Assembly: GCA_942491275.1 (NCBI GenBank)
Contig: CALNZI010000006.1
Coordinates: forward strand, 9,899 to 73,898
Direction: 5' to 3'
Source: Minisyncoccota bacterium
GTDB lineage: Bacteria > Patescibacteriota > Minisyncoccia > Phycocordibacterales > UBA9973
DNA: 64,000 nucleotides
The position numbers and the translations under genes were made by a program. The notes under the pieces are model-generated. The model was given only the letters and a program-made list of their open reading frames with translations, was not told where the DNA came from and searched no databases. This document shows, one piece after another, positions 743-60,558 of the stretch. Position 1 is the stretch's first letter. Each line of letters begins with the position of its first letter.

Positions 743-1660
743 ATGAGTTGGTTTTTTATTGCCCTGGGGGCTCCATTTTTATGGGCATTGGTTAATATTT
801 CTGATCAATACCTTGTTAAAAAATATTCAATTGGTGAAAAAGGGTCGGGAGGCCTAGTTCTTTTTTCTAGTCTTATTGGAATCTTTGTCGCGATTTTTAT
901 TGGGATATTTACTATGGGTATTTTTGAAATACCCATTATGGATAAGTTTCTTCTTATTTTAACTGGAGGTTTGGTTATTCTGTGGGTTATTATATATCTG
1001 TATACTATTGAAATTGAAGATATTTCTTTTATAGCTCCTTGGTTTTCTGTTGTTCCGATTTTTGGATATATTTTAGGATATGTTTTTCTAGGAGAAACAT
1101 TAAACAATCAACAGTTAATTGGTTCAGGAATTGTTTTATTGGGAGTATTTTTGATATCCATTGATTTTTCTTTGGAAGAAAAATATAAATTTAAATGGAA
1201 ACCAGCACTTTATATGATAATTACATCTTTTATTATTGCTGTAATTGGGATTATTTTTAAATACGTAACAATAGTTGATAGGTTTTGGATTTCTTCCTTT
1301 TGGGAATATTTTGGGCTTGGGGTGTTTGGTATTTTAATTTACTTTTTTATTCCAAAGTATCGTCGAGAATTTTTAAATATGAACAGACTGGGTGGAATAA
1401 AGATATTTATATTGAATATCTTTAGTGAGTTTCTAACTATAATTGGTAGTCTTTTGACTAATTACGCTGTTTTATTGGCTCCAGTGGCCTTGGTTTATCT
1501 GGTGGGTAGTTTTCAGCCAGCAATTGTTCTTTTGTTTGTTATTTTAGGAACAAAATTTTTCCCAAAAATCATTACAGAAAAAATCCATCATCAAATTATG
1601 ATACCAAAAATTATTGCGATCTTAATTATACTAATTGGTAGTTTTATTTTGTTTATTTAA
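743..1660 (+). CDS. EamA/DMT-family membrane transporter
   Basis: 305 aa, about 10 hydrophobic spans arranged as two similar halves, typical of drug/metabolite transporters. The 3' end overlaps the convergent gene by 8 nt. Confidence 0.6.
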   Translation: MSWFFIALGAPFLWALVNISDQYLVKKYSIGEKGSGGLVLFSSLIGIFVAIFIGIFTMGIFEIPIMDKFLLILTGGLVILWVIIYLYTIEIEDISFIAPWFSVVPIFGYILGYVFLGETLNNQQLIGSGIVLLGVFLISIDFSLEEKYKFKWKPALYMIITSFIIAVIGIIFKYVTIVDRFWISSFWEYFGLGVFGILIYFFIPKYRREFLNMNRLGGIKIFILNIFSEFLTIIGSLLTNYAVLLAPVALVYLVGSFQPAIVLLFVILGTKFFPKIITEKIHHQIMIPKIIAILIILIGSFILFI

Positions 1661-2954
1661 GGTAGCCCCATTTTTTGAGCTTTGAATGATCTTCTTCAAT
1701 AAATTTTCTTCCAATATCATTTCGATAAAGCATTTTAGGTACAATCACTTTTTTAATAAGAGAATAAGTTTTTTCTTGGGCTTCTTTGACGGTTTTTCCC
1801 ATTTGAGTTGCGTAAAGAACATAACCGGCATCATCTGATAAATAGAAATCTTTTGAAGATATTGTTTTCTTTGACAAACCGTCTAATCTTATGTGCTTAA
1901 ATTCCTCTTTACTCATATTGTTAAAAAATACATTTACACCGACAAGATCTTCATTTTTTGTATTATCTCCGAATGGAAAGGGAGGAGTTGCTACTAAAAC
2001 AATAATCCCGTAACCTTTTTTCCATTTTAAGTTGTAATTTTCTCCCTTGGCTACAGAATAAAGAAATTCAGCCCAGGGTGATTCATGGATTTCTGCTTGT
2101 AGGTGTATCGCAGGAGAACCTAATCTAGCTGTTGCTTCTAGGCAAAAAATTCCATTTTTGTTTACTATTGTATTTATTTCAAAATCTCCTCTAAAATTTA
2201 CTTTTTGTAAGAATGGTTTTAGTTTCGCGATAGTTTCTTGGTAGAGTTTATTATTTTCATCACTGTCGTACCACATTAATGTTCCCATTTCAGAAGTTGT
2301 TGGACCGAGATCTCCTGGGAAGAACTTTTTATGTTCAACATTATATTCAATTGGTCCAATCCAATTTTCCCCGTTAAAATATCTACCTATTCCAATTTCA
2401 ATTCCTTCAATTTTTTCATGTAATGTTATTTTTCTATCTTTAAAATTATTTTTTTTAATATAACTTTCAAGAACAGAAATAACATCTTTTCCATTTTTTA
2501 AACAGCCGACATAATTGATTGTTTTATCTGAGTCTTTGTTTTGTTTTACAACCCAAGCTTTTGGATGCTTTTTAACATAGTTAATAGCTTTTTTAATACT
2601 GTCAAAATCTTTTAGTTTTTTTGTTTTAAGTCCGTATTCTTTAAAAATTTCTTGGCCGTATTCTCTATTAGTTTCTAATAATTCTCCTAAACGAGAACCT
2701 CCAAAAACGATATACCCATCTTTTCTTAATTGGTCTTGTTTTTTCCCATGACCAACATCATCAAAAATAATTAGGCCTTTTTTACCAACCCAATTTAATT
2801 CAGCTTCCCAATCTTCAGTTTTATTTACAATATTATCAAAAGTTTTCTTAACTTTTTTATTTCCTATATAAAGTTTAACATCATGACCTTCATTTTTAAG
2901 AATATAAGCAAGGTTTCCTGCAACAAAATCATTTGATACAAATAAAATTTTCAT
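1653..2954 (-). CDS. purD: PurD-like ATP-grasp enzyme (phosphoribosylamine-glycine ligase family, divergent)
   Basis: 433 aa. Blocks are alignable by eye to PurD: FPGDLGPTTSEMG, LEATARLGSP, GYVLYATQMGKTVKEAQEKTY, YRNDIG. No other purine-pathway gene lies nearby. Confidence 0.6.
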   Translation of the reverse strand: MKILFVSNDFVAGNLAYILKNEGHDVKLYIGNKKVKKTFDNIVNKTEDWEAELNWVGKKGLIIFDDVGHGKKQDQLRKDGYIVFGGSRLGELLETNREYGQEIFKEYGLKTKKLKDFDSIKKAINYVKKHPKAWVVKQNKDSDKTINYVGCLKNGKDVISVLESYIKKNNFKDRKITLHEKIEGIEIGIGRYFNGENWIGPIEYNVEHKKFFPGDLGPTTSEMGTLMWYDSDENNKLYQETIAKLKPFLQKVNFRGDFEINTIVNKNGIFCLEATARLGSPAIHLQAEIHESPWAEFLYSVAKGENYNLKWKKGYGIIVLVATPPFPFGDNTKNEDLVGVNVFFNNMSKEEFKHIRLDGLSKKTISSKDFYLSDDAGYVLYATQMGKTVKEAQEKTYSLIKKVIVPKMLYRNDIGRKFIEEDHSKLKKWGYLK

Positions 2955-2959
2955 ATATA

Positions 2960-2990
2960 ATAATAAGACAATAAACTATTGTCTTATTAT
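2960..2990. promoter_or_regulatory. 14-bp perfect inverted repeat in the purD-like / histidine-kinase divergent region (candidate operator overlapping a -10 box)
   Basis: ATAATAAGACAATA-aac-TATTGTCTTATTAT. The left arm contains the minus-strand TATTAT located 5 nt from the purD-like ATG. Confidence 0.4.
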
Positions 2991-3026
2991 CATGTTAATA
3001 CTTTTTGTTACTTTAGTCAAAATATT

Positions 3027-4703
3027 ATGAATAATTTAATTGCAGGAATGTGTGCTGACGGTATTCCAAAAACTTTGGGAATTTTTGATTTTAGTATCGC
3101 TCCTTACTTACTTTATTACGCTTACGTCCCCATTGTTATAGCAGCACTGTTTTTTGGAGTATTAATTTTTACAAAAAACAATAAGTCTTTAATAAATAAA
3201 TTATTTTTTGCGATAACGGTGATGTTTGTTTTATGGGTCCTCAACGTTTTAGTTCAATGGATTGCTGTCCCAAATAGTTTTATATACAACTCATGGAAAA
3301 TAGCTCCTATTTTTGAAATTCCTATCTACTTGTTGTCTATTTATTTTGTTTATGTTTTTGCATATAAAAAAGACTTATCTTCTCTTTATAAATCAATTTT
3401 ATTAGTAATTTACATTATTTTCATTGCATTAAGTTTTACTAAGTTGAATTTAATGGGCTATGATTATGAATATTGTGAAGGGTTATTAGGGCCTCTTCAG
3501 AATTTTATTTCAGGAATCGAAGCCCTCTCTATTGTTGTAATAGCATTAATAGGGAATAAATACATAAGAAAAAATAAATCAAATAAAAAAGACAAGAAAA
3601 TTGTTAAAACTTTGGTTATTGGAATTGTTATTTTTCTTAGTTTGTTTTGGTATTCTGAAGTTTTTGGAATAGTTACCTCTGAATATGGAATAAATCTTAT
3701 TGGTCCAATAGGGATGTTTGTATTTCTTGGATTGGTTACCTTTTTAATGGTTAGATATGAAGCCTTTAATATTAAATTATTGGCAACTCAAGCCCTGGTC
3801 TTTGGATTAGCTATTTTTATTGCTTCTCAGTTCTTCTTTATTCAAGTACCAGTCAACTTTGCCCTTAATGGAGCTACTTTGATAATGGTATTATTCTTTG
3901 GTAATTCATTAATTAAATCAGTTAAAAAAGAAGTTGAGCAAAGAGAAAAATTACAGATACTAACTGAAGAACTTTCGGAAGCCAACGAAAAACTTAAAGG
4001 ACTCGATAAATTAAAAACGGAATTTTTATCCTTGGCCTCACATCAATTAAGGAGCCCGCTGACTGCAATTAAGGGTTATGCCTCCATGGTATTGGAGGGA
4101 GATTATGGAGAAATTAATCCCGAAGCCAAAGATACAGTGGGGCGGATATATAAAGCAAGCCAGAACCTTACAAAAATTGTTGAGGATCTATTAAACGTTT
4201 CTAAGATAGAACAGGGTGGAATGAAATATGAAATGGAATTATTTAGTTTGGTTCCCGTAGTTGGTGATATGGTTAAGGATCTTTCCATCACTGCTGATAA
4301 GAAAAATGTAAAGATCAACTTTGAGTCAGACGAAGAAGAGAAATGTATGGTTAACGGGGATAAAGAAAAGATTCGTCAGGTTGTTCTTAACTTAATTGAT
4401 AATTCTATTAAATATACGAAGGAGGGAAGTATTGATGTTTCTGTTAGAAGAAATGATAATAAAATTCTATTTGCCATCAGGGACACAGGAATGGGTATGA
4501 CAGAAGAGACAAAAGATTCATTGTTTCAAAAATTTGCCAGAGGTGAGGGTTCAAAGATGAATACTTCAGGGACGGGATTAGGACTTTATCTTGCAAAACA
4601 GATTGTGGAAGCTCACAAAGGACGTATATGGGTAGAATCACCAGGATTGGGGAAAGGTTCCACTTTCAATGTGGAATTGGAGGTAGTTGACAAAGGAGTA
4701 TAA
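3027..4703 (+). CDS. Sensor histidine kinase with a large polytopic N-terminal membrane domain
   Basis: HisKA H-box LSLASHQLRSPLTAIKGY. HATPase N/G boxes LIDNSIKYT, DTGMGM, GTGLGLYLAK. No response regulator is adjacent. Start moved to the first ATG; the track start at 2979 is TTG. Confidence 0.85.
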   Translation: MNNLIAGMCADGIPKTLGIFDFSIAPYLLYYAYVPIVIAALFFGVLIFTKNNKSLINKLFFAITVMFVLWVLNVLVQWIAVPNSFIYNSWKIAPIFEIPIYLLSIYFVYVFAYKKDLSSLYKSILLVIYIIFIALSFTKLNLMGYDYEYCEGLLGPLQNFISGIEALSIVVIALIGNKYIRKNKSNKKDKKIVKTLVIGIVIFLSLFWYSEVFGIVTSEYGINLIGPIGMFVFLGLVTFLMVRYEAFNIKLLATQALVFGLAIFIASQFFFIQVPVNFALNGATLIMVLFFGNSLIKSVKKEVEQREKLQILTEELSEANEKLKGLDKLKTEFLSLASHQLRSPLTAIKGYASMVLEGDYGEINPEAKDTVGRIYKASQNLTKIVEDLLNVSKIEQGGMKYEMELFSLVPVVGDMVKDLSITADKKNVKINFESDEEEKCMVNGDKEKIRQVVLNLIDNSIKYTKEGSIDVSVRRNDNKILFAIRDTGMGMTEETKDSLFQKFARGEGSKMNTSGTGLGLYLAKQIVEAHKGRIWVESPGLGKGSTFNVELEVVDKGV

Positions 4704-4843
4704 ATATGCTATATTAAATATAGTAAATTGTTCTTTACTTAAAAATTTAGCCGGTTTTTGTTATTTATTTTAGATGTTTTTTTATAAGACTTTTGGAATA
4801 AATAACAAAAACAATTTTTTTATTAACTAAATTATTTAATAAA

Positions 4844-5062
4844 ATGGCTAAGACGAAAACAAAAAAAGATGATGTTTTACATTCTTGTACAAACAAAAAC
4901 GGACACTGTTCTGTTCCTGGGTGTAAATCAAGGTTGAATGAAATGAAAAGTAAATGCGGAAATGATCATGTTGTAGGAAGAAAATACAAGCGTTTTGACG
5001 CTGAGAAAGAAAAAGAAACTTTTCAACCGATAGAACCCAAAATGCATTTCAATAAAAGTTAA
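4844..5062 (+). CDS. Hypothetical small basic Cys/His-containing protein
   Basis: 72-aa ORF with CTNKNGHCSVPGC...KCGNDH. It lies between a long upstream inverted repeat and two downstream hairpins. No recognisable family. Confidence 0.4.
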   Translation: MAKTKTKKDDVLHSCTNKNGHCSVPGCKSRLNEMKSKCGNDHVVGRKYKRFDAEKEKETFQPIEPKMHFNKS

Positions 5063-6905: not shown

Positions 6906-7523
6906 TTAGGCCCTATATTGTAAAGCGTTTTTTATTGTTTCAGAATCGGAGTATTCTAATTCTGTTCCAGTGGATAACCCTCTTCCTAGGGAGACAATTT
7001 TAAAATTGTATTTCTTCTGCAGGGGTAGTAAAACTTCTCTTAAATAAATGTCGGTGTGTTCTCCTTGAGGATTTAAAGATAAAGCGATTATTATTTCTTT
7101 TAGTTCTTCTTTTTTTAATCTTTCTTCGGTTATTCTTTTTAATTCTTTAACTCGAACAAAGTTGGGAGTTTCTTTAGTTACGATAGGGACAAGACCTCCG
7201 AGAATAAAGTACATTCCTTTGTAATTTCTACTTTTTTTAATACTTTCAAAATCAGCATCTTTTTCTAAAATTAAAAGGGAAGTGCGGTCTGTTTTAGGAT
7301 CAGAACAGGTCTCACATAAGTCTTGTTTTTTATTATGAAAAAATAAAAAACAAGATTGACATTGAGAAATAGTTTTTTTAATTTCCAATATTGATTCTCC
7401 TAATTCTTTTACATAGTTAGGATTTTTATGTAATAAAAAATAAACAAAACGCTTGGCTTGTCTTTCACCAATGCCTGGAAATTCTTTAAAGTATTGTGCC
7501 AGTTTGTCTATTCTATCTTCCAT
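6906..7523 (-). CDS. recR: Recombination protein RecR
   Basis: HhH FPGIGERQAKRF, Cys4 zinc motif CQSC...CETC, Toprim-like C-terminal half. Confidence 0.9.
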   Translation of the reverse strand: MEDRIDKLAQYFKEFPGIGERQAKRFVYFLLHKNPNYVKELGESILEIKKTISQCQSCFLFFHNKKQDLCETCSDPKTDRTSLLILEKDADFESIKKSRNYKGMYFILGGLVPIVTKETPNFVRVKELKRITEERLKKEELKEIIIALSLNPQGEHTDIYLREVLLPLQKKYNFKIVSLGRGLSTGTELEYSDSETIKNALQYRA

Positions 7524-31743: not shown

Positions 31744-32712
31744 ATGGAATTAGATTTAGAACAATTAAAAAAAGATCACAAAACAAGTTATTTCGCCGAA
31801 GAATACGAGCGTCTTTCTGCTGAAGAAGGAAAAGTTAATAAAATGGTGGAGCAGGATGAAGATCTTCGAGAATTAGCCAATGAAGAACTTCAAAATTTAA
31901 AAACTCAAAAAGAAGCTATTGAAACTCAATTAGAGAATATAATTAAAAGTGAAAAAGAAGAAGAGTCTTTTCCAAATGAAATAATCTTGGAAGTTAGAGC
32001 CGGAGCTGGAGGAGATGAAGCCTCTCTTTTTGCTTGGGAATTGGCTCATATGTATGAAAAATTTTCTGAAGCTCGTAAATGGGAATGGAAACCCTTAAAT
32101 GAATCTTCCAATGAAGTTGGAGGATATAAAGAAGCTTCTTTTGAAGTTAAGGGCAAAGACATCTACCGTCTTTTTATGCATGAAACTGGGGTTCATCGAG
32201 TTCAGCGTATTCCCGCTACAGAAAAAAATGGAAGAATACATACATCTACGGCTTCCGTTGCAGTTTTACCTTTATACAAAAAAACAAAAATAAATATTAA
32301 ACCATCGGACGTTGATATAGAATATTCAAGATCTGGAGGAGCTGGAGGTCAGAATGTTAATAAGGTGGAAACAGCGGTTAGATTAATTCACAAAGAAACT
32401 GGAATAGATGTTCGCTGCACAACAGAACGAAGTCAATTGGGTAATAGAGAAAAAGCCATGATGATTCTTTCTTCTAAACTACAATTAAAAAAAGATGAGG
32501 AAGAAGCTGCAAAATATTCACAAGATAGAAAAGACCAGATTGGAACTGCTGATCGTTCAGAAAAAATTAGAACCTATAATTTTCCACAAGATAGAGTAAC
32601 TGACCATAGAATTAAACAATCTTGGTCCAACCTTCCTAAAATAATGGAAGGGGATATAGATAAAATGATAGAAGCTTTGGCTTCAGGAGAAATGGGGGAC
32701 GAAGAAGAATAA
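31744..32712 (+). CDS. prfA: Peptide chain release factor 1 (short N-terminus)
   Basis: GGQ motif ([11 protein letters not shown]) and the RF1-type PAT tripeptide (RIPATE). 322 aa. Confidence 0.9.
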
Positions 32713-32777
32713 TTTGACAACATCAATATAAATATATATAATTTATATAAATAAATTATTCATCAACAAAAAAAGAA

Positions 32778-32987
32778 ATGTGGGCAAATGTAAAGTATGT
32801 ATTTGGCTTTATTTTTATTTTTATCTCCATTTATATTAATACAACTGGAATAAGTGAAGAAATGAAGACCTTGGTTGGAGCAAAAGACAATTCTCAGATT
32901 ATTATCTTTGCTGCATTAATAGCAGTAGGAATTATTCTGCTAATATGGGCAATGGCCTCCGAGACCAAAAGAAGACAAACAACCTAA
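32778..32987 (+). CDS. Small membrane protein (2 TM), hypothetical
   Basis: 69-aa hydrophobic ORF followed by a strong terminator. Confidence 0.4.
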   Translation: MWANVKYVFGFIFIFISIYINTTGISEEMKTLVGAKDNSQIIIFAALIAVGIILLIWAMASETKRRQTT

Positions 32988-33006
32988 CCCTTTAACGGGA
33001 CAAACG

Positions 33007-33036
33007 AGCGCTAGATCTTTTACTCTAGCGCTTTTA
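33007..33036 (+). terminator. Intrinsic terminator
   Basis: AGCGCTAGA-tcttttac-TCTAGCGCTTTT. Confidence 0.75.
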
Positions 33037-33284
33037 ATTTGCACATATTTCTATTGTTATTTTTTAATGGCTATGATATATTTGACTCTAGTAGTTTCCT
33101 TATGTTTTGGTATTTGTTTCATCCTTTCGTGTTAAACATCAAAGTATGTAAATGAAAATCGGCTCAGGCGATTACATTTATAAGTATCCGGTCTAGTATC
33201 GGATTCCGAATTCGAATCGGAAAGTTAATTATTGTAAAATTGTATTTATTTAATAGGTAAAATTTTACGAGTATATTGTCATAT

Positions 33285-33545
33285 ATGGCAAAGAAGTTAT
33301 ATGTAGGTGGTCTTCCTTACAAGACAACTAACGAGGAGCTTGAAGCTCATTTCGCGACTGTAGGTACTGTTACCTCAGCAACTATTATTATGGATAAAAT
33401 GACTGGTCGTTCAAAGGGTTTTGGTTTCGTTGAAATGGAAAACGACGCCGACGCTGAAAAAGCTATTGCTGACTTTGATGGAAAAGATTTCGATGGTCGA
33501 AATCTAACTGTTAACGAAGCACGACCAATGGAACCTCGTCAATAA
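33285..33545 (+). CDS. RRM-type RNA-binding protein
   Basis: RNP2 KLYVGGLPY and RNP1 KGFGFVEM. ATG 33285 lies 7 nt after TATATT (33272-33277); the track start at 33276 is TTG. Confidence 0.88.
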   Translation: MAKKLYVGGLPYKTTNEELEAHFATVGTVTSATIIMDKMTGRSKGFGFVEMENDADAEKAIADFDGKDFDGRNLTVNEARPMEPRQ

Positions 33546-33562
33546 AAAGATATGTTTCAATT

Positions 33563-33592
33563 AAAAACCCCACTCGTAAGAGTGGGGTTTTT
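33563..33592 (+). terminator. Intrinsic terminator after the RRM gene
   Basis: AAAAACCCCACTC-gtaa-GAGTGGGGTTTTT. Confidence 0.85.
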
Positions 33593-33596
33593 GTTT

Positions 33597-33637
33597 TGTG
33601 CGTGTACTTGGAATCGAACCAAGGACCTCTGTCTTAT
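33597..33637 (-). repeat. Exact 41-nt duplicate of the 3' half of tRNA-Ile (anticodon loop to discriminator)
   Basis: 33597-33637 is identical to 33680-33720. Identity stops inside the anticodon (…GTCTTAT | aaatgg versus …GTCTTAT | caggac). Confidence 0.9.
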
Positions 33638-33681
33638 AAATGGAAGAGAGTTTCAAAACAAAAACAAGCTAACGTCCTCTG

Positions 33682-33753
33682 TGCGTGTACTTGGAATCGA
33701 ACCAAGGACCTCTGTCTTATCAGGACAGCGTTCTACCACTGAACTACACACGC
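33682..33753 (-). tRNA. tRNA-Ile (anticodon GAU), CCA not encoded
   Basis: Minus strand reads GCGTGTGTAGTTCAGTGGTAGAACGCTGTCCTGATAAGACAGAGGTCCTTGGTTCGATTCCAAGTACACGCA, which folds as a clean cloverleaf by hand. Confidence 0.9.
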
Positions 33754-33814
33754 ACGGAAGAAACTAGCTTGTTTTTATTTTGAACGAACGAACCATTTAT
33801 ATTGTATCCAGTTA

Positions 33815-33850
33815 TATCAGGACAGCGTCCTACCAACAACTACACACAAA
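33815..33850 (-). pseudogene. Decayed copy of the 5' half of tRNA-Ile (5' end to anticodon)
   Basis: Minus strand TTTGTGTGTAGTTGTTGGTAGGACGCTGTCCTGATA versus the tRNA GCGTGTGTAGTTCAGTGGTAGAACGCTGTCCTGATA. There are a few substitutions plus a 1-nt deletion. Similarity ends in the anticodon loop. Confidence 0.7.
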
Positions 33851-33953
33851 ACACTAGTTGAACCTAACCAATATACCAAAAACTTAGAAATATCGCAATT
33901 ATATATTAAACATATATAATTCTTGCTTTTTCGAGATACTTTTTATATACTAG

Positions 33954-34289
33954 GTGTGGTCAATGATCCTCATTGGCCTAGTTATATTTATGGAATTAGA
34001 AAAATTACAAGCACAAAAAGAAAGTGAGATCTCAGGGTTTTTTTGGCTTGGGTTACAAATTGCTTTCATTTTTGGGATACCAGCTGCTGTTGCTGTATTT
34101 ATTGGGAAAAAACTCTCTGCCATATGGGCAGGCAATAGCTGGGTTACAATCTGCTTAGTTATTTCATTTATTTTCTCCTGGATTATTATTATTATTATTT
34201 ACAGAAAAAAATCAAAAAAAATAAACACCATCGAAGCGAGAATAAGAGAAATAAAGAAAGAATCCCTATCTGCACAGGTAGAAAAATAA
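33954..34289 (+). CDS. Small membrane protein preceding atpB (AtpI/AtpZ-like position)
   Basis: 111 aa, 3 TM, first gene of the atp cluster. The start is uncertain: GTG 33954 or ATG 33963. A TTGCTT-17-TATACT promoter lies just upstream. Confidence 0.5.
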   Translation: MWSMILIGLVIFMELEKLQAQKESEISGFFWLGLQIAFIFGIPAAVAVFIGKKLSAIWAGNSWVTICLVISFIFSWIIIIIIYRKKSKKINTIEARIREIKKESLSAQVEK

Positions 34290-34299
34290 TTAAATTAAA

Positions 34300-35100
34300 A
34301 TGAGCATACTCCAAGTACCAAGAGAAATAGTTTCCGTTACGCCTGAGCCAGTGGCTTTAATTGGTAATTTCAAAATAACAAGTTCCACAATTACTTCAGT
34401 TTTTATTTTAATATTATTTTTACTCTATGCTTTCTTTGTAGTCCGTAAATATAAAGCGAGACCAAACAAAGCTCAAACTTTAGTTGAACTATTAATAGAA
34501 TCCATGCTTGATTTCATCGCTCAAATAACAGGGCACATGAAATATGCAAAAGTATTATTTCCTTTAATCGCTTCTATTTTTATTTACGTTGGTTTTTCTA
34601 ACTTGATAACAATTTTAATACCTGGATTAAGTAGTATCACAATTGGAAATATTGCTGTTTTTCGTACACCAACAGCAGATTTTAATACAACCTTCGGACT
34701 AGCAGTGGGATCCGTATTACTTATTCATGTAGTTAGTGTAAAAGACTGGGGTTTCTTTGGACACTTAGGCAAATTTTTTAAATTTAAAGATGTATATCTA
34801 GGTTTTAAAAAAAGTATTAAACACGGTGTTATGGAATTAATTAATTTTGGAATTGGCTTGCTAGATATTGTCGGTGAAATAGCCAAAGTTGTATCATTAT
34901 CTCTTCGTTTATTTGGTAACATGTATGCAGGTGAAATCCTAGCCATGATTATAATGGGTGCATTTGCTTATGCAATCCCATTGATCTGGACTTCGATGAA
35001 CTTGTTAGCAGCAGTTATTCAGGCTCTTGTTTTTGGAGCTCTCGTTACTGCTTATTACATGTTAGCAATTAAAATTAAAGAGGGTGAATCTGGAGAATAA
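34300..35100 (+). CDS. atpB: F-type ATP synthase subunit a
   Basis: LSLRLFGNMYAGE (essential Arg) in a polytopic protein. Confidence 0.92.
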   Translation: MSILQVPREIVSVTPEPVALIGNFKITSSTITSVFILILFLLYAFFVVRKYKARPNKAQTLVELLIESMLDFIAQITGHMKYAKVLFPLIASIFIYVGFSNLITILIPGLSSITIGNIAVFRTPTADFNTTFGLAVGSVLLIHVVSVKDWGFFGHLGKFFKFKDVYLGFKKSIKHGVMELINFGIGLLDIVGEIAKVVSLSLRLFGNMYAGEILAMIIMGAFAYAIPLIWTSMNLLAAVIQALVFGALVTAYYMLAIKIKEGESGE

Positions 35101-60401: not shown

Positions 60402-60462
60402 GGCCCTATCGTCCCTGCCAGCCCTCGCGTACTCGAGAGCAGGCTGGTAAAGGTTAGGACAT
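60402..60462 (+). pseudogene. 5' fragment of tRNA-Glu (nt 1 to about 27) carrying a 34-nt GC-rich hairpin inserted in the D-loop
   Basis: GGCCCTATCGTC[CCTGCCAGCCCTCGCGTACTCGAGAGCAGGCTGG]TAAAGGTTAGGACAT versus the gene GGCCCTATCGTCTAACGGTTAGGACAT. Similarity ends where the anticodon stem would start. Confidence 0.75.
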
Positions 60463-60486
60463 GTATAATTAAATAGTCTAAGTTTG

Positions 60487-60558
60487 GCCCTATCGTCTAA
60501 CGGTTAGGACATCGCCTTCTCAAGGCGGTAATCCGGGTTCGATTCCCGGTAGGGTCAC
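60487..60558 (+). tRNA. tRNA-Glu (anticodon CUC), CCA not encoded
   Basis: GGCCCTATCGTCTAACGGTTAGGACATCGCCTTCTCAAGGCGGTAATCCGGGTTCGATTCCCGGTAGGGTCA. Manual cloverleaf with anticodon loop TTCTCAA. Confidence 0.9.

Follow-up and report, generated by a model that had tools for sequence, protein, structure and literature searches.

We examined a tRNA-Ile(GAU) locus on the minus strand of a 64,000-nucleotide stretch of a Patescibacteria genome (hereafter the window; 32% GC), which carries small ribosomal, ATP-synthase and RF1 genes. Reading the minus strand 5' to 3', the locus consists of a promoter-like site, a damaged 5' half of a tRNA-Ile gene, a 61-nt leader (33814-33754), an intact tRNA-Ile(GAU), a 44-nt trailer (33680-33638), a perfect 3' half of the same gene and a terminator. 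The features are as follows.

33870-33898, minus strand: promoter-like site TTGCGA-17-TATATT with an extended -10 TG, about 20 nt upstream of the outer 5' half
33815-33850, minus strand: outer 5' half, reading TTTGTGTGTAGTTGTTGGTAGGACGCTGTCCTGATA and ending ...CCTGATA at A37, with acceptor positions 1-2 and the D-arm damaged
33802-33814, minus strand: 5' extra segment X (TAACTGGATACAA), between the duplicated TA and the closing helix; in other lineages this position holds a small variable hairpin
33793-33801, minus strand: J, the 5' strand of the closing helix, TATAAATGG, pairing with 33643-33635
33785-33792, minus strand: 5' strand of the conserved internal loop, TTCGTTCG (family consensus TTCGCTCG)
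33754-33784, minus strand: L, the leader strand of the long helix, containing an 18-nt arm (33782-33765), its last bases GT pairing with A73 and C74
33681-33753, minus strand: intact inner tRNA-Ile(GAU), with C74 encoded but not the rest of CCA
33651-33680, minus strand: T, the trailer strand of the long helix, containing an 18-nt arm (33671-33654)
33644-33650, minus strand: 3' strand of the conserved internal loop, CTCTCTT (family consensus CTCGCTG)
33635-33643, minus strand: J', the 3' strand of the closing helix, CCATTTATA, whose last TA is the duplicated T36-A37
33597-33637, minus strand: outer 3' half, 41/41 identical to the inner gene
33563-33592, no strand assigned: hairpin terminator shared with the convergent RRM-protein gene (33285-33545, plus strand); its A/T tract is also complementary to 12 nt of the trailer

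A first-pass annotation had described an intact tRNA-Ile between the two halves of an older copy, clamped by an 18-bp inverted repeat, and we found every one of these elements where it had been placed. The intact tRNA was identified by ARAGORN at 33681-33753 and scored 71.9 bits against the Rfam tRNA model. The 3' half at 33597-33637 is 41/41 identical to 33680-33720, and a 30-mer taken from it occurs twice in the window against 0 expected by chance. The 5' half matches the gene over about 34 of 37 aligned positions with one indel. The two 18-nt arms differ at one position, which is a U.G pair on the tRNA strand. However, the inverted repeat is much longer than 18 nt. It spans 37 nt at 84% complementarity and runs straight out of the acceptor stem, and beyond an 8x7 internal loop (TTCGTTCG / CTCTCTT) lies a further 9-bp helix, TATAAATGG/CCATTTATA, which ends exactly at the outer 3' half. 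The whole 271-nt region folds as a tRNA within a hairpin within a tRNA at -101 kcal/mol, with z = -8.4 against shuffles.

To determine if this layout occurs elsewhere, we scanned a genome collection with the 3' half of the tRNA. The window's own genome is not in this collection, as exact-protein look-ups with its RRM protein and AtpB found nothing. The scan returned 18 loci (these and the metagenome loci below are given L numbers), all from Patescibacteria MAGs. Nine of the 18 have partial copies of their own tRNA-Ile within about 200 nt, and each copy matches that genome's own acceptor stem. We then scanned metagenomes for the junction at the outer 5' half (...GCTGTCCTGATA followed by T instead of A), which returned 45 loci. 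Eleven of these are unrelated coding hits, and the rest, about 33 loci, show the same order of 5' half, leader, intact tRNA-Ile, trailer and 3' half wherever the contig is long enough. The layout is therefore not an assembly artefact, because it appears in dozens of independent assemblies.

Across lineages the parts follow a fixed order. After ...GATA comes a variable 6-18-nt segment, often a small hairpin, followed by TA and the 5' strand of the closing helix, the loop strand (T/G)TCG(C/T)TC(G/A), and a leader strand that ends in GT before G1. After A73-C74 come the complementary trailer strand, the loop strand CTC(G/A)CT(N), the 3' strand of the closing helix and TA-AGACAG. To test if the structure is conserved we aligned 22 distinct modules and found that 90.2% of cells form a standard pair, against 70.7% in shuffles. 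Forty-seven cells changed on both sides, against 12.1 in shuffles, and 0 of 500 shuffles reached that value. Pairing with partners slid by 1-3 columns was 31-50%. Some modules were first located by a script that required flank pairing, which inflates the percentage paired but not the variety of pair types. Within the internal loop, alignment columns 11, 12, 15 and 16 are invariant and two pairs also hold, one of which covaries C-G with U-A while the other is an almost invariant G-C. RNAalifold on 14 leader plus trailer constructs recovered the same helices, including the closing helix, with compensatory change in 23 of 30 pairs. The long helix is present in every lineage with a different sequence. 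Positions -2/-1 are GT, opposite A73-C74, in 16 of 23 distinct loci, and -3:75 and -4:76 covary. A weak test of strand asymmetry gave sense and antisense folding energies that do not differ (Wilcoxon p = 0.69) and 46 against 26 G.U pairs, thus the hairpin could be maintained at the DNA level rather than as RNA. The 5' loop strand resembles a T-loop (GGTTCG) and the 3' loop strand resembles AACGCTG of the 5' half, but neither resemblance could be shown to exceed chance and we did not use them.

We next examined the junctions. The 5' half ends at A37, and the 3' half begins at T36 in 13 of 20 distinct loci, AA in 6 loci (four of these are one family) and GA in 1 locus. TA is therefore present on both sides of the cassette in most loci. 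Where two elements lie side by side the pattern is TA-E1-TA-E2-TA (L023, L045 and L036). Hairpins with the same module but lacking a tRNA, which we call empty, lie between the full cassette and the 3' half in L006, L023/L059, L045 and L036, and stand-alone modules lie in intergenic DNA of L045 and L053, the only two stand-alone copies in about 260 kb of related loci. A covariance model built from the modules recovered three empty hairpins that were not in its training set, at E = 5e-5 to 2e-3, and found no further copy in the 64-kb window.

Several loci show more elaborate arrangements. L026 is nested three levels deep, with decay increasing outward and each level's leader pairing with its own trailer. 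L036 lies downstream of a 16S rRNA gene and has a canonical-type tRNA-Ile nested in a shell of its own type, the whole sitting inside a shell of the window's type. In L053 the acceptor strands of the shell pair with each other (GGGTGTG/CACACCC) but differ from the core (GGGCACA/TGTGCCC), and in L037 the T-stem of the shell differs from the core by compensated changes. Ten near-identical contigs of the L012 family differ in having 1-2 five-prime units, 0-2 three-prime units and 1-2 extra T-arm hairpins, which suggests that unequal recombination is ongoing and acts on the two sides independently. About half of the shells carry extra hairpins in the D-loop, variable loop or T-arm, or are truncated. 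Conversely, the unbiased first 17 nt of the 5' half are identical to the core in 13 of 26 listed loci and several 3' halves match 37/37. This is more than simple decay predicts and leaves room for a shell function.

To place the layout in time we compared the neighborhoods of these loci. Fifteen to seventeen loci, nested and plain, share the context prfA, RRM protein, tRNA-Ile and atp operon, while RF1 identity to the window ranges from 80% down to 62%. On a rough RF1 tree plain loci are scattered among nested ones, and L001 and L007, which carry a plain tRNA, are sister to the window inside a clade of nested loci. The promoter block (GATATTT..AAGTTTTTG.TATATT) and the end of the RRM gene align between the window and these two syntenic relatives, and their tRNA occupies the position of the window's shell, directly after the promoter and directly before the terminator and RRM gene. 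The outermost shell abuts unrelated flanks in most loci. We suspected that the long leader of L007 is an eroded outer half, but 183 of 500 shuffles scored at least as well as the alignment and the idea was dropped. L019, the closest cassette relative, shares the damaged variant of the 5' half, AGTTGTTGGTAG, so that damage predates their split. Clustering of neighboring ORFs found conserved housekeeping synteny but no nuclease, integrase or transposase as a conserved neighbor.

The first-pass interpretation, that a tRNA-bearing segment flanked by inverted repeats was inserted into the anticodon loop of a resident tRNA-Ile, is only partly supported by these data. The reading of such a segment lying within the anticodon loop holds up. 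In contrast, the recent origin suggested from the perfect 3' half is not supported, since the same arrangement occupies the same context in lineages with RF1 proteins only 62-80% identical to that of the window. The simplest reading is an old nest with several losses, and the identity of the 3' half therefore cannot reflect recent origin but must be maintained by selection or concerted evolution, by gene conversion or unequal exchange with the core 42 nt away. The alternative that two att duplications had collapsed is also not supported. The proposal that leader and trailer form a processing stem is plausible but is inferred from sequence alone. The recurrence as a conserved family, the internal-loop module, the TA at both junctions and the multi-level nests had not been recognized.

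Our data suggest that the locus belongs to a conserved family of nested tRNA-Ile(GAU) genes in Patescibacteria, in which a hairpin-shaped intervening cassette lies in the anticodon loop of an earlier tRNA-Ile gene. From outside to inside the cassette has a 9-bp closing helix, a pyrimidine-rich, two-fold-symmetric internal loop (TTCGCTCG / CTCGCTG) with two central G-C pairs, a helix of about 30 bp and an intact tRNA-Ile at the tip, while the two halves of the earlier gene remain as a shell next to the original promoter and terminator. We hold this explanation with moderate confidence. The anatomy, its recurrence and conservation, the covariation, the TA junctions, the position of the shell, the behavior of the cassette as a unit and the recombinational dynamics rest directly on the sequence comparisons, whereas function, processing, history and origin are inferences. 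In this view only the inner tRNA is the working gene and the unit would be transcribed as one precursor from the conserved promoter to the terminator. Because the leader-trailer duplex runs without a break into the acceptor stem (U-1:A73, G-2:C74), a double-strand-specific nuclease, most likely RNase III, would have to cut or open it before RNase P, 3' trimming and CCA addition could finish the tRNA. RNase III is a plausible candidate as rnc is retained across CPR (PMC12641178), and short non-intron insertions consistent with RNase III-cleaved IVS are common in CPR rRNA genes (PMC11270868). The precursor extent, cleavage sites and fate of the shell are all inferred. We further infer that the layout is old and vertically inherited, with occasional loss by recombination between the direct repeats, and that unequal recombination or gene conversion between shell and core adds and removes units and keeps shell halves, such as the window's 3' half, identical to the core. 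The weakest step is the origin, for which we suggest a palindromic element of the IVS or MITE type, carrying or capturing a tRNA-Ile, that inserted at the TA of the anticodon loop. Mobility lacks a mechanism, since no transposase or endonuclease is a conserved neighbor and the module is not dispersed in the window, and because 5' and 3' units vary independently in the L012 family, multi-level nests need not come from repeated insertion of whole cassettes.

Other explanations were considered. Nothing may ever have been inserted: an ancestral tRNA-Ile could already have sat in a long leader-trailer processing hairpin, and partial tandem duplications with breakpoints at ATA/TA microhomology could have placed copies of the halves outside it. 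This would fit the L012 family, where the leftmost 5' half is itself preceded by a leader strand, the rightmost 3' half is followed by a trailer strand and unit numbers vary independently. The TA overlap could simply be microhomology, and 7 of 16 other tRNAs in the related loci have nearby partial copies, as does the tRNA-Glu of the window, whose partial copy holds a 12/13 hairpin. However, in the window, L027, L029, L046, L051 and L062 the outermost 5' half abuts the promoter or unrelated DNA with no leader strand upstream, and the plain syntenic genes of L001 and L007 have no leader-trailer helix. Empty modules flanked by TA next to the 3' half and stand-alone modules are not produced by this route, and L036 has a different tRNA-Ile type inside this type. 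We therefore consider this explanation unlikely. A simple tandem duplication or triplication with decay is excluded, as leader and trailer are reverse complements rather than direct repeats in every lineage.

Somewhat less likely still is that the cassette is a true intron, removed at position 37/38 by an unknown endonuclease and ligase, so that one transcript would yield two tRNA-Ile molecules. The insertion point coincides with the canonical archaeal and eukaryal tRNA intron site, the covarying closing helix brings the junctions together, the symmetric loop would suit a dimeric nuclease, many shells are undamaged, and the shells of L053 and L037 keep their own acceptor and T-stem pairing while differing from the core. 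Against this, the window's 5' half is damaged, as noted about half of the shells carry extra hairpins or are truncated, and symmetric cuts would leave the variable segment X in the anticodon loop. By inspection we saw no bulge-helix-bulge motif (two 3-nt bulges separated by a 4-bp helix), as the 3' junction lies at the base of a continuous 9-bp helix and the 5' junction is followed by the variable segment. No Intron_gpI hit was found in the window region at the gathering threshold or at E<=10, nor at E<=1 in L006, L026, L036 and L045, and Rfam searches at gathering and permissive thresholds gave only tRNA and noise in the window region and in eight related loci. The base before the 3' exon is U or A in the window and in most loci, not the terminal G of group I introns. 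No locus has an empty module as the only interruption, and plain relatives exist, so the cassette is dispensable. Very unlikely is that the half-copies are att-site duplications left by mobile elements, although partial tRNA copies next to full genes are the normal footprint of integrating elements (PMC9897764) and the anticodon loop is reportedly an integrase sublocation (Williams 2002). The spacers are 61 and 44 nt with no ORF, both a 5' and a 3' half are present, the spacers are mutually complementary and conserved across lineages, and no integrase is a conserved neighbor. In viral contigs the 3' half and the outer-half junction pattern gave no true match, and the module motif gave 49 chance-level hits, none with a partner strand.

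Among known systems, the cassette resembles the intervening sequences of bacterial 23S/16S rRNA genes and the short non-intron insertions of CPR rRNA genes (PMC11270868) in being a helical, ORF-less insertion of under 200 nt at a loop of a structural RNA gene, sporadically distributed with gains and losses, whose expected route of removal is RNase III cutting of the extended stem without re-ligation. It differs in sitting in a tRNA anticodon loop, where fragmentation would destroy function, in carrying an intact copy of the interrupted gene at its tip, and in being nested repeatedly. MITE-like palindromic repeats that duplicate TA, such as Neisseria Correia elements, have long terminal inverted repeats that form a hairpin when transcribed. 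Long inverted repeats are present here, but the left end carries the unmatched segment X and the conserved loop motif is the same on both arms of one strand, so it is a direct repeat and not an inverted repeat in duplex DNA. TA at both junctions in most copies, empty copies and rare stand-alone copies are found here as well. However, the window holds one copy in 64 kb and no transposase was found nearby. Group I introns also occur in tRNA anticodon loops of bacteria including Patescibacteria (PMC13011429), but only about 104 nt of non-tRNA sequence is present here, and 37/38 is the one anticodon-loop position where that survey of 4,934 genomes found no group I intron. Archaeal tRNA introns at 37/38, the multi-intron tRNAs of Thermoproteales and split or permuted tRNA genes share the position, an extended helix joining the halves and, in some shells, additional hairpin insertions in the D-arm, variable loop and T-arm. 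Here the host is a bacterium, and the interrupted copies are accompanied by an intact copy and are often visibly broken. The tRNA fragments left by mobile elements are also direct repeats of part of a tRNA next to the complete gene, but they lie kilobases away across an integrase-bearing element and on one side only (PMC9897764). Leader-trailer stems of rRNA operons are likewise long-range duplexes flanking a stable RNA and presumed RNase III substrates, and in L036 the nest lies in the spacer downstream of 16S rRNA. Here the stem encloses a single tRNA, runs without a break into the acceptor stem and in turn lies inside a split tRNA.

A further possibility, which we regard as doubtful, is that the cassette is a new kind of genetic element, a self-complementing intervening sequence that can occupy the anticodon loop of an essential single-copy tRNA gene because it carries a spare intact copy of that gene. 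Each new round would turn the previous core into a shell, which would produce the Russian-doll layout. The symmetric loop and unbroken acceptor-stem extension may also define a new maturation route, and as a guess only, a staggered double-strand cut between -1/+1 and 74/75 would yield 5'-P-G1 and a two-base AC 3' overhang ready for CCA addition.

Literature searches found no description of nested tRNA genes, and the module, a conserved RNA or single-strand DNA, is absent from Rfam 15. Half-tRNA pseudogenes in CPR genomes can thus be parts of an organized structure, of which annotators should be aware. The differences in unit number between near-identical organisms offer a natural system for measuring recombination between very short repeats, and the locus gives a concrete substrate for studying tRNA processing in Patescibacteria, where RNase III, RNase J and PNPase are among the few ribonucleases retained. 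This would be the first case known to us in which a tRNA gene is interrupted in its anticodon loop by an element that carries a working copy of the same tRNA, and it shows how an essential gene in a tiny genome can tolerate, and even accumulate, insertions.

We next found that 12 nucleotides of the trailer of the tRNA-Ile(GAU) cassette (33654-33665, GTTTTTGTTTTG on the minus strand) are perfectly complementary to the A-tract just after the outer 3' half (33587-33598), which is the T-tract of the terminator of the RRM gene. The trailer could therefore pair alternatively with the 3' end of the transcript. The surrounding gene order in the window (31744-35100), prfA, small ORF, RRM RNA-binding protein, tRNA-Ile and atp operon, is conserved in 15-17 loci. 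AtpB (subunit a) is only about 33% identical between the window and the syntenic loci L001/L027, whereas RF1 is 73-79% identical.

Stand-alone copies of the internal-loop hairpin module (TCGCTCG ... CTCGCTC) were observed in intergenic DNA, away from any tRNA, in two of the related Patescibacteria loci, L045 and L053. The module is therefore an independent structural unit. The copies lie at the following positions:
L045, 5504-5569, plus strand, stand-alone hairpin module
L053, 1304-1367, minus strand, stand-alone hairpin module

We also found extra GC-rich hairpins of about 20-35 nt in the outer 3' halves of the L012 family (a group of near-identical contigs) and of the related loci L014, L023, L020, L045 and L049. 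These hairpins are inserted only in shell copies, that is, the split outer copies of the gene, and they contrast sharply with the AT-rich surroundings. The sites of insertion are T-stem 52/53 (one or two tandem copies), T-loop 56/57, position 53/54 and the variable loop.

Upstream of the tRNA-Glu(CUC) gene of the window, a 5' partial copy of tRNA-Glu sits 23 nt from the intact gene, and it consists of positions 1-12, a GC-rich hairpin inserted between positions 12 and 13, and then positions 13-27. The 23-nt spacer repeats part of the promoter region (TAAATAGTCT), and no 3' partial copy lies downstream. The outer 5' halves of tRNA-Ile in the related loci L010 and L018 carry a GC-rich hairpin (TCCGCCAGCGGGCGGATCCTCCCGCTGGAGGA) at the same 12/13 position. 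In L010, a tandem 110-nt array of 5'-truncated tRNA copies, each with this hairpin, runs to the contig end. The positions are as follows:
Window, 60402-60462, plus strand, 5' partial copy of tRNA-Glu
Window, 60414-60447, 34-nt GC-rich hairpin within that copy
Window, 60486-60558, intact tRNA-Glu(CUC)
L010, 2110-2683, outer 5' halves with the 12/13 hairpin and tandem array of truncated copies
L018, about 1950-2030, minus strand, outer 5' halves with the 12/13 hairpin

A different arrangement was found in two other related loci, L003 and L060, where a conserved element of about 130 nt lies 3' of four different tRNAs (Ile, Leu-UAA, Leu-GAG, Val-GAC). In order, the element contains an inverted T-arm piece, a GGGGTCGGGG hairpin, GTGTAGGAGA, a TTCAGAACCGAGGGTTCTGAA hairpin, ...GCGYGTGAG, and a direct copy of the tRNA from A58 to its 3' end. 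The element has no Rfam match and is not present in the window. It was observed at:
L003, about 4730-4880, plus strand
L003, about 1580-1760, minus strand
L060, about 2880-3050, plus strand
L060, about 7100-7290, minus strand

To determine if partial copies accompany other tRNA genes, we considered the tRNA genes other than tRNA-Ile(GAU) in the Patescibacteria loci retrieved for comparison (L001-L063). We found that seven of these 16 genes have a partial direct copy of themselves within 400 nt. Partial tRNA duplication therefore seems generally common in these genomes.
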